DNA from: Escherichia coli
GTDB lineage: Bacteria; Pseudomonadota; Gammaproteobacteria; Enterobacterales; Enterobacteriaceae
DNA: 64,000 nt
Direction: 5' to 3' (one strand)
NCBI RefSeq assembly: GCF_965641715.1
Contig: NZ_OZ282453.1
Shown here: positions 4,632-41,504 of the stretch, piece after piece
How the letters are laid out: every line of letters begins with the position of its first letter
Numbering within the stretch: position 1 is the stretch's first letter
The notes under the pieces: generated by a model
What the model was told of the DNA's origin: nothing
Seen by the model: only the letters and a program-made list of their open reading frames with translations
Database searches by the model: none
Made by a program: the position numbers and the translations under genes

Positions 4632-5696
4632 TTAGAGATCTAAGCTCTGCTGTATCGGCTGTGCTTTTAAATCATGATTATTATTCAAAATATAATTACT
4701 CATCTCATTCAATTCAAAAGGCATTAAAAAAGATAAAGAATTTCTATTTTCTTCAGCAAACTTCAATTCTGGTCTACTTTCATACGTAGTAGGAAGATAT
4801 GGACTCGCTATCTTTTTTGCATACTTAAAAGCATAATCAACAGTATGTGATGTTCCACTTTTAATATTCCATTCGACTGGTATTAGTGAATCACATAAAG
4901 CAGCCTGGATTCTGTTACGCCTTACAAAATTTTCTGCGCTATATGTTTGTTCAGGTAGATACTCGGTAACGATAGCCCCACCATTAGAAACTATTGCTCG
5001 ATATAACTCTTTAGAACCTTTCGGATACTCGACAAAAATCCCATTACCCAATACCGCAATAGTTGGAATGCCATATCTCAGCGATTCATAATGACAACAT
5101 TGATCTATTCCTGTCGCCAAACCACTGACTGTTGAAACATCTTTAGAATATAGAGAAGAAACAATCAGTTTTACTAGAAAAATACCATCATCCGTTGGCT
5201 TTCGTGTCCCCACAATTGCAACAGATTTCTTATTAAGAAGTTCATAATTACCATGAACAAAAATCCAAAATGGCGGATCGCTTATGTTCTTTAATGATTG
5301 AGGAAATGTAGCCTGATCATAAAAGGTGAGCACAATACCATTTTTATTGAGTTCACGAGCTCTCTCCAGTCCCTTAGACCAAAGGTCTTGTTGAAATGTT
5401 TCCCAAGATATATTTTTAGGCAAGGAAACTCTTAGATATCCTGCCAAGGCATCAGCTGTATTATCTTTTAATATATTCTTAAATCCAATTTTGGATTGAT
5501 AGATTTTGCGAAGCGTCCAGTAACCAACCCCCTTTAGACAAGTTAAGGCAAGAAACGCAATAATTTCATTTTTCCAAAACTCTCTAACTTCAGTGTAATC
5601 TTTATATTCCATTTTACGTTTGCCTTTTAGATTACAACCCGTACTCAACACAAAAAATTTAGAAAATTGTTGCCAAAAGCATATTATAAATAGCAT
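4632..5696 (-). CDS. satellite cargo: DprA/Smf-like (SLOG-type Rossmann) protein; ShosA-like candidate; probable start at MEYKDY (5612)
   Basis: DprA core motifs VAIVGTRKPT, GLATGID, TIAVLGNGI, YPKGSKELYRAI, FVRRNRIQAAL; AT-rich. Confidence 0.55.
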   Translation of the reverse strand: MLFIICFWQQFSKFFVLSTGCNLKGKRKMEYKDYTEVREFWKNEIIAFLALTCLKGVGYWTLRKIYQSKIGFKNILKDNTADALAGYLRVSLPKNISWETFQQDLWSKGLERARELNKNGIVLTFYDQATFPQSLKNISDPPFWIFVHGNYELLNKKSVAIVGTRKPTDDGIFLVKLIVSSLYSKDVSTVSGLATGIDQCCHYESLRYGIPTIAVLGNGIFVEYPKGSKELYRAIVSNGGAIVTEYLPEQTYSAENFVRRNRIQAALCDSLIPVEWNIKSGTSHTVDYAFKYAKKIASPYLPTTYESRPELKFAEENRNSLSFLMPFELNEMSNYILNNNHDLKAQPIQQSLDL

Positions 5697-14820: not shown

Positions 14821-14838
14821 ATGGTGCCGATAATAGGA
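14821..14838. repeat. attL core: 18 bp at thrW 3' end, repeated at 3194..3211
   Basis: exact 18-mer match. Confidence 0.6.
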
Positions 14839-14897
14839 GTCGAACCTACGACCTTCGCATTACGAATGCGCTGCTCTACCAACTGAGCTATATCGGC
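14822..14897 (-). tRNA. thrW: tRNA-Thr (anticodon CGU)
   Basis: reverse complement reads GCCGATATAGCTCAGTTGGTAGAGCAGCGCATTCGTAATGCGAAGGTCGTAGGTTCGACTCCTATTATCGGCACCA. Confidence 0.9.
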
Positions 14898-35498: not shown

Positions 35499-36269
35499 GT
35501 GCCTGGTTTGAAGATTACGCTTTTGCAGCAACCACTGGTGTGGATGGATGGTCCTGCCAACCTGCGCCATTTTGATCGTCAACTGGAAGGTATTACCGGG
35601 CGCGATGTGATCGTTCTACCGGAGATGTTTACCAGCGGCTTTGCCATGGAAGCGGCAGCTTCGTCGCTAGCGCAAGATGACGTAGTGAACTGGATGACAG
35701 CTAAAGCGCAGCAGTGCAATGCGCTGATTGCAGGCAGTGTTGCATTACAAACGGAGTCTGGTTCTGTTAACCGCTTTTTGCTGGTTGAGCCGGGCGGCAC
35801 GGTACATTTTTATGATAAGCGTCATCTGTTCCGCATGGCAGATGAGCATCTACATTATAAACCGGGCAATGCGCGAGTGATTGTGGAATGGCGCGGCTGG
35901 CGTATTTTGCCGCTGGTGTGCTACGACTTACGTTTTCCTGTGTGGTCGCGCAATCTCAACGATTATGACCTCGCCCTGTACGTCGCCAACTGGCCTGCTC
36001 CGCGCTCTCTGCACTGGCAGGCATTGCTGACGGCCCGCGCGATTGAGAATCAGGCGTATGTGGCGGGATGCAATCGCGTCGGCAGCGATGGCAACGGCTG
36101 CCATTATCGCGGTGACAGCCGGGTGATTAATCCACAAGGCGAGATTATCGCTACTGCCGACGCGCATCAGGCAACGCGCATTGATGCGGAGCTGTCGATG
36201 GTGGCATTGCGGGAATATAGAGAAAAGTTTCCGGCATGGCGGGATGCGGATGAGTTTAGGTTGTGGTGA
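35499..36269 (+). CDS. yafV: nitrilase-superfamily omega-amidase
   Basis: GTG start [19 protein letters not shown]. Confidence 0.85.
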
Positions 36270-36289
36270 GTGGGTGTTGTGTTTAGGGC

Positions 36290-36480
36290 AGGGGAGAGTC
36301 GGGGAAGACTACGAAAGCCCGCTCTCCTGCGACCACTTTTATCATAGGAGTGTGGAAGTGCTTTACCATCAATCGCGATGACGTCTTTGTCATTTGATGA
36401 ATGGCAGTCACGCATCCAGTTAATAAAGCACTCGTGAAATTATACTGAACGGATACAAGACATAACTCTAATTATGGTGT
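36290..36480 (-). mobile_element. ISAs1-family (H-repeat) transposase fragment, copy B
   Basis: minus-strand [28 protein letters not shown]; homologous to 38230-38430. Confidence 0.6.
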
Positions 36481-36539
36481 CGTGAACAGGATTACCATTT
36501 TCAAAATTACAATATTATTTGCAGTAATTATGTTATTAA

Positions 36540-37052
36540 TCATTGTGATATTTCCATCTCTGTGATTAATACCGGATAAGCATTTAATTGCAGAGTTTGC
36601 ACGAAATTATCGCAGATAACTGGCAATAACAATAACCCATCAGCCCGCTGCTGTAATACCTCCATTCGTTCTACTGATTCAACATTAACAACCAAACCAA
36701 GGGCATTTAGCGATTTAAGGATCTCCAGATGTTCACTCATCCAGCGCAGAGAAAAAGGATCATCACCAATTATAAAAACAGGCCCCCAGCCGGTTAATAA
36801 CTGGCGTTTCATTACGGAACCAGGATGAAGTCGAGTACATATTACAGGAAATACCCCCTGTTGCGATGGTTCCGATGATGTGGATAATTCAGAAATATTT
36901 TCCATTGTTAGTGAAGAATTAACATGCATTAATAATGGTGAAACAACCTCACTTTCCTTGCTAGTAATGGCTGCACTAATCTGAAAGGAAAATAACAATA
37001 TTATTACGTATAAACTCATTTTTAACATAACACATTCAATCCGTTTATTCAT
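36540..37052 (-). CDS. hypothetical secreted protein (signal peptide), unknown function
   Basis: hydrophobic N-terminus LYVIILLFSFQISAA; AT-rich; between ISAs1 fragments. Confidence 0.4.
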   Translation of the reverse strand: MNKRIECVMLKMSLYVIILLFSFQISAAITSKESEVVSPLLMHVNSSLTMENISELSTSSEPSQQGVFPVICTRLHPGSVMKRQLLTGWGPVFIIGDDPFSLRWMSEHLEILKSLNALGLVVNVESVERMEVLQQRADGLLLLPVICDNFVQTLQLNAYPVLITEMEISQ

Positions 37053-37118
37053 GTTATAGAATAATGATGCTATAAATCATCATTAATGTTCAATTATTTA
37101 ATCACACAATTTAAAAAA

Positions 37119-37622
37119 TCATTGACCAATGTGAATTGGCAATGTACCACTCAAGTTAAAATCACTGAATATTTTATCAATTTCTCTTGCAGTTTCTATA
37201 TATTTAACCTCTTTCGTACTTGCATTATAAATAGCCCAAGCCTCGGGATGGGATGTTCCACCAAACCTTACAAAAAAACTTGATTTCATATTATTATATA
37301 AATTAACATCAGGAAAAGGATCTTCTCCAAAATTAGTAGTATTGAATAATGAAAGTTCGTATCGCTTAGAAAATTCTGTTGGTAGGATAGCTTCACTGCC
37401 ATCAATAGCATTCATCCAGAGTTTGTTACCATTATATTCCAACAATAATCTCTGTTTTGCATGTGTCTTATCTCGTTCTTTAACGACAGCGAATACCTTT
37501 TTAACAACTTGCTGTGCGGATGGTCCTATTGTATTACCAAAAGCTGGCAACCCGATTTTGCCATAAACACTCTCCTGAATGAAATAAATATCCGTTTTAT
37601 CGGCCTCGACAATATCTACCAT
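37119..37622 (-). CDS. hypothetical protein, unknown function (possible orphan immunity protein)
   Basis: AT-rich 167-aa ORF between ISAs1 fragments. Confidence 0.35.
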   Translation of the reverse strand: MVDIVEADKTDIYFIQESVYGKIGLPAFGNTIGPSAQQVVKKVFAVVKERDKTHAKQRLLLEYNGNKLWMNAIDGSEAILPTEFSKRYELSLFNTTNFGEDPFPDVNLYNNMKSSFFVRFGGTSHPEAWAIYNASTKEVKYIETAREIDKIFSDFNLSGTLPIHIGQ

Positions 37623-37850
37623 TTATCCCTCCAAACAAGACCTGACTCCAGGACAAGAGCATAGTGTGTAGTAAACACTTCATGCTCTTGCCCTGACCAT
37701 TGAAATAACAACTTTCGTTTGTTTACTGTACGCTGTCTAAATAGCTGCGTGGAATAAAGTTGCACTTTTTATCATCCCTTGCAGAACAAGATTACGAAAG
37801 CCCGCCCCCGCAAGGACTGACGCGAGGTAGTCTCTGTCCGCAGCTGCTTT

Positions 37851-38430
37851 TCACATCTTACATCTTGCCCCTGCCTTGATTATCTTATCTTTCGTTAAAA
37901 TATTAATAGCGATCTTCCGTATCCCTGAAAATAATTCTGCTGCATTTCCTCTTCTTATTTTGAAGTCGTCTTTATTCATTACCACGTCCAGATGCCAGTG
38001 CAATTTATTCTCCACTTGCCAGTGATTTCGGTTCGCTGTGGCGAACTTCTCTGCGGTTAAATCAGCAGAAATGCTATAATATCTGACCGTCATTTCGGGA
38101 TTTTTCTTTTGTTCTGCTATTATTGAGCGAAATGAGACTGCCATGCATAATTTCTTCAGCCCTTTCCATTCAAACGTAAAATCAATAAATTCATCAGAGA
38201 CATGCAAACAATATGAAGACGGGTTTTAATGACATAAATTGCTCCCTTGTGACGACTTTTATCATAAGAGTGCCGGAGCGTTTTTCCATCAATTGTAATG
38301 ACGTCTTTATCATCTGAAGAATGACAGTCACGCATCCAGTTAATAAAGCACTCATGAAATTTTTCAGGACTGATACAGGATACAACTCTGGCAATGATAT
38401 CGTGAACAGGAATACCATTTTCAAAATCAC
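37851..38430 (-). mobile_element. ISAs1-family (H-repeat) transposase remnant, copy A (internally deleted/frameshifted)
   Basis: C-terminal part intact (ORF 37851..38207); N-terminal part ([23 protein letters not shown]) in another frame at 38230-38430. Confidence 0.7.
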
Positions 38431-38772
38431 CATATCACTTCAAAAAATCGGGATGTGTTTCCCCAAATCCTCTATATCTTCCCAGCATTATGCACCAGAA
38501 ATAACGGCGCAAATAGTTAACAGATAGAATATCTGGCAATTTATGTTCCACTTTCCAGGCTTGCCTGTAATCGGGGATAATAGAAATATGTTCCATCAAT
38601 TTTTTAAGTTCCATTTTGCCCCCCTTAATTATGCAATGAGTATTTGATCATGTATAAGCAATGAAAAACAGCTTTAGGTAATAAGGAACACCTCAATTAT
38701 TGAACATAAAATGCGAATTATTTAGTACAAAAAAAGCAGCATTACGTGATTTTTCCCTGGGAGTACAGTGTG

Positions 38773-38824
38773 AAGTTTCCGGCATGGCGGGATGCGGATG
38801 GGTTTGAACTGGGGTGATTAGGCA
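38773..38824. repeat. Imperfect duplicate of the yafV 3' end (matches 36225..36276)
   Basis: 28-bp exact core aagtttccggcatggcgggatgcggatg plus diverged flank. Confidence 0.6.
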
Positions 38825-38871
38825 CTACATGTCTACATTTTCCCGGTCACCACCCCCTCAATCTTATGAAC

Positions 38872-40965
38872 TTAACCTCGGCTCACCGTTTTCGATTCCA
38901 TCCAATAAATGACCCGGTTGGATGTGGGCTGATCGCCAACAACTTTGCCATCTGCAGAGATTAGCTTCAGCTCTTTATTAGCCTCATCACCGAAGTAAAT
39001 CATGCGGTAGCGAAAATAACCGCCCCAGGGTTCGCGTCCACCCAGCGAACTTTGCATAAACCAGGCGCGGGAGTCGTGAACCTGGTCATCATAGAGAGCC
39101 AGTAATTCAGCGCAGGGCTGAGTACGCGTTCCCGTTCCCAGTGAATCAATAAAAAATTGTGGATAGAGTCCGTCTCCCATAGCCTTAATTTGCTGATATT
39201 CTTTTGCTTCATCATCGCCATTAATCAGATACACCGGATATTTAGGAATGACATCCACAAGAATCTGAATGGCTTTCTCCATGACGCTGCCGTTAATATC
39301 GCGCGTCCATCCTTTATAATCGCTCTGAAATTCTCGGGCTGCCTCTCGCAACTGATACTGAGCATTGGTTGGGTCAAGGATAGGAATGCCCTGATTACTT
39401 TCATCAAGTGTGCCATTCCCTTTCTGCTTGTTCGCCCGCTCTTTTTCAATATTTTCCATTTGTTCTTTACGCGCTTTAGCCTCTTTATCAAGTCCATCTT
39501 TATCCAGCTGTGGCGCCTTAATATAAAAAGGTTGCACAAGAAGGCTGTTATTCGCATAGCGACCGATACGCCAGGCGGTGATCCAGCCGATCTGATCGCT
39601 AATTGCGCTTTCAAGAACCTGGGCAAGTTGATAGGAGTGATAATCTTCCCTCGTATCAATCATTTCTTCTGTACCCTGCAAGGTGGTGTTCAGCAGCGTT
39701 TGTCGCCAGATGTTGAAGCGTTTTGTTAATGAATTAGCAATCGTAAATTCCTTTACGCTAGAAGGACTCATAATTCGCAGAGGCGACACACCTTTTATTA
39801 ATGGAGTAACAAATTTAGAATAAACAGCAAGTGGTGCTCCTGAATCAAATGCAGCAAGATACATATCATGCAGTGCTATCTGAGAAAGAATTTCGCCTGA
39901 GTCACCACAGGACTTCCCCTGATCGCGAACGGGATAGCCACCACCGACATCAGAGTGCATCCCCGGATAGATAATTTCCTCTGCATTTAAAGGATAATTT
40001 CCGTCTGGACGACGGATTGAATCCAGCGGAAAGCACAGCCGCTGCTCATGCGCGGCAACGAAGTGGCGGCAGCATTTAATCAGGCCGGGAAACTGCCTCT
40101 CATCAGGGAGTTGCTGAGTACTATCGGCCCATCCCATATGACCGGCAGCGCCCGGTAAAACATGCGCCGCCCCCACAGAAGCTACGGTATCCAGCAGCCC
40201 CAAAAACTCAATACTGACAGCTAACCCGGCCAGCATCACCTGTTGCTCCTGCGGGCAAGCTAACTGAGTCAACCAGTTAACAAAAGTTCGTGCTTCCGCT
40301 GCGCCACGGGAAAATCCGTAGATAAACAGCTTTACGTTTAGCAGGCGCGGACTGGCTTGCTCTAACAGTCCCTGTAATTTTTCCAGGTAGGGGTTAATCA
40401 CATTGCGACGATTCACTTCACCAGTCATAGGCCAGGGAGCGCGCATAAGAGGAATGTGCTCTTTTGCCACATTATCATCCAGTCGCTTATGGGAAGGGTC
40501 AATGGAATAGCTCAGGGCATCCACGAGGCGTAATAATGCCCAATTAATTCGATCTTCACCACCAGTAGCGAACTCCAGCCCGCTGTTGCTGTAATCCATT
40601 TCACCTATCTTGGGAAATGGTGTGCCTACACCCGGTATATAGTAGTTAAAATATCCCTGTTCTTCTGCGTTCTGATAGGTCGTATGAAACAGTTTGGCAA
40701 TATTGATTGGGTGTCCAGGAGTGTCATTATATTCATTATTATTTGTACCATCAAAAAACAGACTAATATGCAGACTTTGATTACACGTAAAGCCAATTCT
40801 AAATCCAGCCTGTTTACTACAGTTGGTTTTGTGCTCTTCTGTTTTATTGATTTGTTTTAGGTAGTTCGCGTTTACCTGCGCTTCAGATAATATTAATCGC
40901 CCATTTTCAGGAAACGCTGGGGGGGCATAACACGGAAAAGCCAGACCACTTATTTCGCTGGACAT
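38872..40965 (-). CDS. tle1: T6SS phospholipase effector, Tle1 family
   Basis: 697 aa; lipase motif GFSRGA (GxSxG); sits after adaptor gene in vgrG island. Confidence 0.7.
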   Translation of the reverse strand: MSSEISGLAFPCYAPPAFPENGRLILSEAQVNANYLKQINKTEEHKTNCSKQAGFRIGFTCNQSLHISLFFDGTNNNEYNDTPGHPINIAKLFHTTYQNAEEQGYFNYYIPGVGTPFPKIGEMDYSNSGLEFATGGEDRINWALLRLVDALSYSIDPSHKRLDDNVAKEHIPLMRAPWPMTGEVNRRNVINPYLEKLQGLLEQASPRLLNVKLFIYGFSRGAAEARTFVNWLTQLACPQEQQVMLAGLAVSIEFLGLLDTVASVGAAHVLPGAAGHMGWADSTQQLPDERQFPGLIKCCRHFVAAHEQRLCFPLDSIRRPDGNYPLNAEEIIYPGMHSDVGGGYPVRDQGKSCGDSGEILSQIALHDMYLAAFDSGAPLAVYSKFVTPLIKGVSPLRIMSPSSVKEFTIANSLTKRFNIWRQTLLNTTLQGTEEMIDTREDYHSYQLAQVLESAISDQIGWITAWRIGRYANNSLLVQPFYIKAPQLDKDGLDKEAKARKEQMENIEKERANKQKGNGTLDESNQGIPILDPTNAQYQLREAAREFQSDYKGWTRDINGSVMEKAIQILVDVIPKYPVYLINGDDEAKEYQQIKAMGDGLYPQFFIDSLGTGTRTQPCAELLALYDDQVHDSRAWFMQSSLGGREPWGGYFRYRMIYFGDEANKELKLISADGKVVGDQPTSNRVIYWMESKTVSRG

Positions 40966-41504
40966 GTTGCTGGTTCCTTCATCTCGCGGGGTTCTTTGAT
41001 GGGATAATTCGGTGTGCCATACTTCTGGCAGACGGTTGTCACTTTAATCTGATTACACGTTAGAAAATGAACGGTCAGGCCACAAAGCTCAGCATCGTAT
41101 TCCGGGATATCAACAATTGCGGTATGTTGAATGTAACTTTCTTTTAGTTTTTTCTCCCAGGCCTGATATTTATCCCAATCCTTATAGAGTGGTGGCGGAG
41201 GTACTGTATTTGGGGTAATTTCCCATTCAACCTGGGCTTTTAATCCAGAATGCCACTTATCTGGCAGCATAACGCAACAATATCCTCCACCGTCTCCGAA
41301 TGGACCAATATTTGGTCCGCCGTAACCATTGATGTGTATATAATTTATATCCTTATCCGTATGATTTATCCCATTAATATCCACAGCAGTGTAATCACCG
41401 CTATTTTTTGCCATTGAACAGCCTGATACTGCAAATAAAATCATTAGAGAATAACATTTGAAAATCGTTCTCATACTGATACTTTTCCTTATTTTGCTGG
41501 ACAT
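40950..41504 (-). CDS. lipoprotein, candidate Tle1 immunity protein
   Basis: lipobox LFAVSGC; overlaps tle1 start by 16 nt. Confidence 0.4.
   Translation of the reverse strand: MSSKIRKSISMRTIFKCYSLMILFAVSGCSMAKNSGDYTAVDINGINHTDKDINYIHINGYGGPNIGPFGDGGGYCCVMLPDKWHSGLKAQVEWEITPNTVPPPPLYKDWDKYQAWEKKLKESYIQHTAIVDIPEYDAELCGLTVHFLTCNQIKVTTVCQKYGTPNYPIKEPREMKEPATCPAK

Follow-up and report, generated by a model that had tools for sequence, protein, structure and literature searches.

This stretch of Escherichia coli DNA (64,000 nucleotides (nt), contig NZ_OZ282453.1; hereafter the window) raises the question of how the 3' end of yafV came to be present twice, on either side of a 2.5-kb segment that holds two remnants of ISAs1-family insertion sequences (IS) and two small open reading frames (ORFs), beside tle1, a phospholipase effector gene of a type VI secretion system (T6SS). 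The architecture of the segment was found to consist of an ancient IS scar downstream of yafV (IS-A), a constant two-gene cassette, a second IS copy that forms a joint (IS-B), a foreign scrap of yafV that accompanies tle1 and, in another strain, a deletion across a 28-nt core shared by the two yafV ends. The best explanation overall, to which we assign a probability of about 60%, is that this terminus of a genomic island was built by successive recombination events, and that its cassette is a putative orphan T6SS effector-immunity-type pair.

The window was aligned to E. coli chromosomes and the top match was strain A30 (locus L016), at 99.4% identity, whose RefSeq annotation was used. The gene order in A30 runs from dpaA-yafJ-lpcA-fadE-ivy-yafV through the segment to tle1, DUF3304, DUF4123, VgrG fragments, a full T6SS-1 cluster and tRNA-Asp (aspV)-dnaQ-rnhA, and the segment is therefore the yafV-proximal terminus of the aspV-yafV T6SS-1 island. 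Resident yafV, encoding a 2-oxoglutaramate amidase, is intact on the forward strand (35499-36269, by the annotation of A30 and by translation), and tle1 is annotated on the reverse strand at 38872-40965. The GC (guanine plus cytosine) content was 27-42% in the stretch of the two ORFs compared with 50-58% in yafV. Mapping against an intact ISAs1 that adjoins yafV in strain NDM2 (L002) left 36521-37792 as unique DNA, holding both ORFs, between the ISAs1 parts.

An earlier note, made from the sequence alone, had placed the true end of yafV at 36225-36276 and a copy of it beside tle1 at 38773-38824, among several repeats within 36200-38850; a repeat search and a BLAST comparison of the sequence against itself aligned all of them. 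The resident copy (36211-36274, forward strand) is 80% identical to 38759-38822 over 64 nt, with a 28-nt identical core (36225-36252 and 38773-38800), and the likelihood of an exact 28-mer repeat arising by chance inside 4 kb is negligible. The second copy comprises the last 19 codons and the stop codon of a yafV gene (38760-38817, forward strand); it starts precisely at the left end of IS-B, lies in the yafV frame and continues into the tle1 module, and its differences from resident yafV include synonymous third-position changes (GAA/GAG, TAT/TAC).

When the degenerate-codon pattern of the C-terminus of this remnant was searched for, a single match was obtained, the metagenome contig AGFS01075944.1 (L026). 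Over 38760-38822 the remnant is identical to the yafV of L026 at 59 of 63 positions (94%) versus 50 of 63 for resident yafV (79%). The fadE, ivy and yafV genes of L026 are merely 81% identical to those of the window; from window position 38759 onwards the identity rises to 92.8% and the contig continues into tle1 with no IS in between, the tle1 genes themselves being approximately 91-93% identical. The YafV protein of L026 is at most about 90% (about 88-90%) identical to that of any named species, and close relatives of this lineage carry yafV directly beside dnaQ-rnhA, a truly empty locus. A full-length copy of the remnant's yafV allele was found in none of 5426 complete E. coli genomes, 73 of which contain the 76-nt remnant region. 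The closer match of the remnant to a yafV that is contiguous with tle1 argues that it is foreign and arrived with tle1, and not that it was duplicated in place, as the earlier note had supposed; by these alignments the remnant is xenologous, having been carried in with the tle1 module out of a different Enterobacteriaceae lineage, one whose tle1 directly adjoins yafV. In an enterobacterial lineage with foreign-type yafV (L027-L029), nqr genes were seen beside dpaA-yafJ-gmhA-fadE, and in part of its members yafV and dnaQ are not separated by an island.

The ends of the IS elements were fixed from the ISAs1 of NDM2 and from independent ISEc1 copies at ydcC and yhhI, giving a right terminus of CAGGGCAAGATTACG... 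(CAGGGCAAGATTACGAAAGCCCGC...) and a left terminus of ...GATCTTTCCCTG. Two homologous ISAs1/H-repeat remnants had been proposed here, and 36321-36520 and 38241-38440 are 81% identical over 200 nt; the positions first given (36290-36480 and 37851-38430) were approximately right but too short. IS-A, on the reverse strand, is a composite of a right terminus (36289-36327) and an internal fragment of a divergent ISAs1 transposase gene (36320-36520, identified by BLAST and annotated in RefSeq as a partial ISAs1 pseudogene), fused at the microhomology CGCTC (36320-36327). Its right end begins 19 nt past the yafV stop codon with the aberrant sequence CAGGGGAGAGTCGGGG... (aberrant inverted repeat CAGGGGAGAGTCGGGGAAGACTACGAAAGCCCGC), and it is without a left end. 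The internal piece is 81-83% identical to every ISEc1 copy compared. The end of yafV and the right end of the IS together (36100-36327) are contiguous with the NDM2 arrangement at 94% identity, and the same junction is also present in K-12, where the cassette is absent. As K-12 and NDM2 share this junction, we infer that it is an ancient insertion, common to distant strains.

IS-B (37782-38759, reverse strand) is an ISEc1-like ISAs1 copy by mapping to the intact element, and an ISAs1 transposase pseudogene in RefSeq. Its two parts, 37793-38226 and 38227-38759, are 90-91% identical to intact ISAs1 and are separated by a 312-bp internal deletion at 38226/38227, in addition to which the copy has a frameshift and stop codons. 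With respect to the terminal inverted repeats (CAGGGCAAGAT... / ...ATCTTTCCCTG), the left end of IS-B (...TTTTTCCCTG) is complete and its right end degenerate (CAGAAC... for CAGGGC...), in addition to the aberrant right and absent left ends of IS-A. Neither copy retains an intact transposase ORF (about 378 amino acids (aa)), and IS-A keeps only approximately 200 nt of the gene. Short direct repeats or target-site duplications were found at the ends of neither IS-A nor IS-B, and the mismatch profile along IS-B gave no clear crossover point. In strain A42 (L006, about 4960-5000) the left terminus of IS-B is locally duplicated (GATCTTTCCCTGATTACTTGACCTTTCCCTG) right before the yafV remnant. A published mention of ISEc1 (PMC10711316) was considered and set aside, the matches there being to ISEc12.

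This arrangement could be read as an ISAs1 composite element that inserted with passenger ORFs at the 3' end of yafV and duplicated approximately 60 bp of target, or as the result of an IS-mediated unequal exchange in one lineage, since the ORFs are flanked by two directly oriented ISAs1 copies and the segment as a whole by two yafV-like ends. The topology does resemble a long target duplication, with the left yafV copy ending near IS-A and the right copy starting at the end of IS-B. Against this, the two yafV ends are only 79-80% identical, compared with the 94% identity of the remnant to a foreign yafV contiguous with tle1, so that contig L026 already contradicts the idea. The IS ends lack short direct repeats, IS-A has no complete outer-facing end, and the junction that it forms with yafV recurs in K-12, where there is no cassette. 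Elsewhere the two genes occur with one IS (L031/L003) or with none (L012), and avian pathogenic E. coli (APEC) strains carry the IS-cassette-IS block without a yafV remnant. Nor was a complete cassette found on a true plasmid, as the one full match is a 4.9-Mb record and the two partial matches cover DUF2859, the second gene of the cassette, only. We consider either version of this reading very unlikely. The involvement of IS elements that the earlier note had suggested holds in that ISAs1 copies lie at the joints of the mosaic, but not in the sense of a transposable unit.

The reading of IS-B as a joint follows the comparison of strains. The block IS-A-cassette-IS-B was constant, and DNA past the left end of IS-B varied: it was tle1 in 72 genomes (e.g. 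A30 and A42), a PAAR-like/DUF2169/VgrG module in APEC, with the IS-cassette-IS block kept and no yafV remnant present, and further ISAs1 copies with a group II intron in isolate K12a. Escherichia whittamii (L025) has the same block with IS-B intact, NDM2 has a single intact ISAs1 between yafV and an Rhs immunity gene, and in some strains the cassette is cut short by IS1 or IS630. The left end of IS-B is the joint between the constant block and swappable T6SS effector modules. In K12a (L022, 6644-10965) IS-B is intact and lies 49 nt nearer to the cassette than in the window, and one of the ISAs1 copies that follow it is interrupted by the group II intron (ltrA). The number of DUF3304 genes upstream of tle1 was also seen to vary, from a single gene in both the window (40950-41504) and A30 to a tandem series of three to four, some of them frameshifted, in strains ChlosBP-23-1 (L004, 7178-8797) and A42 (L006, 7191-8750).

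A comparison with alleles lacking the segment, which the earlier note had proposed, yielded one such allele, but not one of ancestral appearance. Among the 5426 genomes, only ChlosBP-23-1 has yafV fused directly to tle1, and its yafV is chimeric, being resident-type up to the 28-nt core and remnant-type past it. The body of this yafV is 98% identical to ordinary E. coli yafV, and the strain has Tle1 and one DUF3304 protein in exactly the form found in A42, which bears the IS. We take ChlosBP-23-1 for a secondary deletion, produced when the 28-nt cores recombined, rather than for an ancestral empty site.

The two AT-rich ORFs that had been noted between the IS remnants are present as described, at 36540-37052 and 37119-37622, both on the reverse strand. 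They are accessory and not conserved core genes: the cassette was found in 758 of the 5426 complete E. coli genomes (14%), including the extraintestinal pathogenic E. coli (ExPEC) and APEC lineages S88, 536 and APEC O1/O2, and in one of 100,044 species representatives, E. whittamii. At least 80% of the cassette was present in 553 of the 758 genomes, and 12 carry an allele that is merely 76% identical. In strains with this 76% allele (L003, 10512-10903; L031, 5214-5477) approximately 390 nt with an 87-aa ORF lie between the right end of ISAs1 and the yafV flank; this stretch is absent from the window, and the IS-yafV junction there therefore differs.

Both ORFs were intact in the seven loci compared, and the genes are adjacent in three diverged alleles, with amino-acid identities for the 167-aa protein and the DUF2859 protein of 100/100%, 68/75% (OU349849 and PapM-32-1) and 59/49% (metagenome contigs L012 and L013). 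The ratio of nonsynonymous to synonymous substitution rates (dN/dS) for the three loci that diverged most (E. whittamii L025, L003 and L012) was 0.15-0.30 in the 167-aa gene and 0.27-0.53 in DUF2859. Judged from these alignments, the two genes travel as a pair and are under purifying selection. Over the region of the 167-aa gene (window 37099-37699), dS between E. coli and E. whittamii (L025) was approximately 0.10-0.12, versus 0.37 for yafV and 0.28 for ivy, and several E. coli lineages share the region unchanged despite differences of 1-3% in yafV; this low divergence relative to core genes and this identity among lineages suggest that the cassette has recently spread horizontally from one species to the other.

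The downstream gene of the pair (36540-37052, with a RefSeq start at 37028 that gives 162 aa) encodes a member of DUF2859/TIGR03765, the PFL_4695 family of 'integrating conjugative element protein' (Pfam E=2.8e-28; NCBIfam TIGR03765 120.6 bits against a cut-off of 59.75, covering profile positions 1-105 of 105). Its N-terminus, MLKMSLYVIILLFSFQISA|A, was recognised as a Sec-type signal peptide by inspection, not by predictor, in agreement with the suggestion in the earlier note that one of the ORFs has such a peptide.

The pair might be taken for the leftover of a degraded integrative conjugative element (ICE) at this tRNA-linked hotspot, the TIGR03765 score being well above its cut-off and the relatives in Salmonella, which are 55% identical across 67% of the query, lying in a canonical PFGI-1/ICEclc-type type IV secretion system (T4SS) cluster, in the order PilL2, TIGR03759, a weakly VirB1-like gene, DUF2859 and TraG/TraD. 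No other ICE gene was found beside DUF2859 in any of three arrangements (here, in L031 or in L012), and by hhalign the 167-aa family had no relationship with the ICE gene upstream of DUF2859. Both genes are, moreover, intact and under purifying selection, and the closest full-length DUF2859 relative outside Escherichia (49% identity) is, once more, the partner of a 167-aa family member, in a VgrG/PAAR island. An ICE remnant is thus highly improbable and, in common with a composite transposon or a duplication in situ, poorly supported. In the Salmonella ICE (L014, 6445-6975) the gene directly upstream of DUF2859 gave a sub-threshold match to VirB1 lytic transglycosylase (E=0.0045), and this weak match hints at a cell-wall enzyme as a possible partner of DUF2859 in ICEs.

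The upstream gene (37119-37622, an intact ORF) encodes a cytoplasmic protein of 167 aa with no cysteine and no signal peptide, which belongs to a rare uncharacterised family and is a putative T6SS effector-like partner of DUF2859. No match was found in Pfam, NCBIfam, PADLOC, PHROGs or PDB sequences, nor was a recognisable toxin domain or catalytic motif, and an exhaustive HMMER search returned just 31 cluster representatives (at 50% identity), mostly of approximately 190 aa and 25-40% identical. An AlphaFold model was confident with an alignment of 23 sequences (mean per-residue confidence, pLDDT, 81.6) and unusable with the single sequence (pLDDT 36.8); a Foldseek search of the model against AFDB50 returned uncharacterised family members only. 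Thus the homology and structure searches proposed in the earlier note identified one ORF as DUF2859 but left the other with neither a Pfam match nor a known fold. Just upstream of the 167-aa ORF lies an imperfect 21-nt inverted repeat (37649-37695, detected by repeat search; 81% complementary, 5-nt loop), which is kept in L006, L021, L022 and L025. A 163-aa ORF that follows the pair in L012 was found to be unrelated.

The pair is co-oriented with T6SS effector genes and was found linked to hcp, vgrG, PAAR or core tss genes. In PapM-32-1 it lies directly after genes for DUF4150, PAAR-like, WD40-like, 411-aa and thioredoxin-like proteins, with no IS between, and in L012 it follows a VgrG-DUF4123-538aa-313aa-PAAR array. 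A 40%-identical relative of the 167-aa protein starts 16 nt past hcp, and another, at 29% identity, is encoded between tssC and tagJ/tssE, as the first in a series of small exported proteins with a Tae-like Cys-His amidase among them. In five contexts, that of tssC included, the next gene encodes a fast-evolving protein of 145-157 aa with four hydrophobic, presumably transmembrane (TM), segments; these 4-TM partners have no detectable similarity to each other or to DUF2859. The second gene product is thus envelope-localised, either by a signal peptide (DUF2859, by eye) or by four TM segments (the relatives). The array next to tssC, in a GC-rich metagenome T6SS cluster (L032, 6000-11100), is a long run of small genes between tssC and tagJ/tssE, which starts with the 167-aa family member and the 4-TM gene and in which a 126-aa Tae-like amidase is followed by a signal-peptide protein.

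A gene of the 167-aa family followed by a gene for an envelope protein resembles the usual effector-then-immunity signature. Because of the T6SS linkage and this gene order, the cassette may be read as a putative orphan T6SS effector-immunity-type pair; taken on its own, this is the likeliest reading of the cassette, though at somewhat short of even odds. A narrower version, in which the 167-aa protein would represent a new family of small T6SS cargo effectors with an unseen fold, and in which its immunity partner would have been swapped (a 4-TM protein elsewhere, an ICE-derived periplasmic DUF2859 protein in Escherichia), is tentative and on balance doubtful. The earlier note had proposed that the ORFs are passenger genes, possibly orphan immunity genes, and of this an immunity-type role remains plausible but passage on a transposon does not.

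Chief among the alternatives to an effector-immunity pair are that the ORFs are orphan immunity genes with no relation to one another, or that they form a module without a part in T6SS. In the former case the ORFs would protect against a cytoplasmic and a periplasmic toxin, respectively, and would have accumulated at the tail of the effector array, neither being an effector; their position downstream of effector-immunity modules at the island terminus, the AT-rich region, the absence of catalytic motifs in either protein and a purifying selection that would fit retained immunity are all in keeping with this. Against this, the two genes remain adjacent and have diverged together across three alleles and two genera, and an envelope protein (4-TM or exported) always follows the 167-aa family, also at the head of the array after tssC and directly after hcp, in the usual order of effector and immunity genes; we regard this alternative as unlikely. 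In the latter case the pair would be a small envelope-associated module (for stress, phage defence or membrane homeostasis) that gathers in variable regions, as several distant relatives lie between housekeeping genes with 4-TM and DUF805 membrane genes and no T6SS gene in view. Five independent T6SS-linked contexts and the absence of PADLOC or PHROGs matches speak against such a module, as does the fact that T6SS effector-immunity pairs are commonly scattered away from the main cluster, and it too is quite unlikely.

Several observations weigh against the explanation that we prefer, that of a recombinant island terminus carrying an effector-immunity-type pair. DUF2859 is otherwise a conjugation-associated family, and in relatives the partner protein is of another kind. 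Of the distant relatives examined, about half showed no T6SS gene in the surrounding 5-10 kb. Within E. coli the dN/dS of DUF2859 was 0.6-0.9, on few changes. The Escherichia form of the 167-aa protein is approximately 26 internal residues shorter than the 190-aa relatives, the invariant positions of the family are mostly Gly and Pro with one Asp and include no obvious catalytic residues, and promoter-like sites in the region were no commoner than in shuffled sequence. With respect to the recombination steps, no ISAs1-interrupted foreign yafV, the presumed intermediate for the IS-B joint, was found, and ChlosBP-23-1 could in principle be a primary recombinant instead of a deletion.

The preferred explanation has five parts. 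An ancient ISAs1/H-repeat copy lies 19 nt downstream of yafV in distant E. coli strains, K-12 among them; all that remains of it in the window is IS-A, in which the aberrant right end is joined to 200 nt from the interior of a divergent copy. Next to it stands the constant cassette, encoding the cytoplasmic 167-aa protein and then the Sec-exported DUF2859 protein; the former may be an Hcp-sized cargo and the latter may neutralise it in the periplasm, a role that a 4-TM protein appears to fill in sister lineages. IS-B separates the cassette from a variable slot, which in different strains is occupied by tle1, PAAR/DUF2169/VgrG or something else. Where the module is tle1, the left end of IS-B abuts the final 59 nt of a foreign yafV, which were imported attached to tle1, the joint probably having formed by homologous recombination between ISAs1 copies, likeliest after an ISAs1 insertion into the foreign yafV. 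Finally, the 28-nt core of the resident and foreign yafV ends would have provided a substrate for deletion, at which one strain would have lost the whole 2.5 kb.

Two further features were noted. In A30, tssH (clpV; L016, 19364-22096) is annotated as a pseudogene with an internal stop codon, and the T6SS-1 of that strain may be inactive. A tRNA-Thr (CGT) gene, probably thrW, lies at window positions 14822-14897; thrW is a known integration hotspot.

The locus provides a worked example of how species exchange T6SS effector modules. Taken with the donor-type arrangement that was recovered, the scrap of foreign yafV shows that the tle1 module crossed a boundary of approximately 19% nucleotide divergence; dead ISAs1 copies serve as joints in this exchange, and the 28-nt core shared by the yafV ends accounts for a clean natural deletion. 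The gene pair is the more useful lead, being present in 14% of complete E. coli genomes and combining purifying selection and repeated T6SS linkage with the lack of a known fold. If it is indeed an effector-immunity pair, it would add a family to the E. coli T6SS-1 arsenal and give DUF2859 a testable function. If the partner has been swapped as well, this would be the first functional assignment for DUF2859, as a periplasmic neutraliser, and the role might extend to a cell-wall enzyme in ICEs.

A search of the literature on yafV/ISAs1/T6SS, DUF2859/TIGR03765 and aspV/T6SS found no description of the gene pair or of the junction. Several elements of the locus correspond to known systems, and there is nothing out of the ordinary in finding IS scars or flanking-gene remnants where islands join the chromosome. 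Flanking-gene remnants are left by the horizontal replacement of island modules when a short piece of a donor core gene stays beside an imported module and later recombines with the resident copy; the yafV remnant differs from these in no point of principle and is a clean example in which the donor-type arrangement was recovered. H-repeats (H-rpt) have been described in the regions of Rhs C-terminal tips, their transposition not having been observed (PMC3032704). IS-B resembles the H-rpt/ISEc1 members of the ISAs1 family in being 90-91% identical to the copies at ydcC, at yhhI and beside yafV, in its termini, of which the left is complete and the right degenerate, and in its position at the tail of Rhs/VgrG effector arrays. 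It differs, with IS-A, in that both copies here are dead, IS-A being a 230-nt composite scar, and both are recombination joints and not mobile elements.

The DUF2859 protein shares with PFL_4695/TIGR03765 of PFGI-1/ICEclc-type ICEs a full-length match above the cut-off, a similar size and a signal peptide, but is encoded here outside a conjugation module, without T4SS genes, and is paired with the 167-aa family at T6SS islands. The pair as a whole resembles the Hcp-carried effector-immunity pairs of hcp-tae4-tai4 type islands in the succession of a small (<20 kDa) soluble protein and a co-oriented envelope-targeted protein, and it resembles T6SS effector-immunity and orphan immunity arrays in its position after hcp, after tssC or at the ends of VgrG/PAAR arrays and in the deep divergence of its alleles. 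The gene pair, as yet uncharacterised, would be a new member of this known class of T6SS effector-immunity systems, within which its unusual feature is a periplasmic protein of a conjugation family in the position of the immunity protein.

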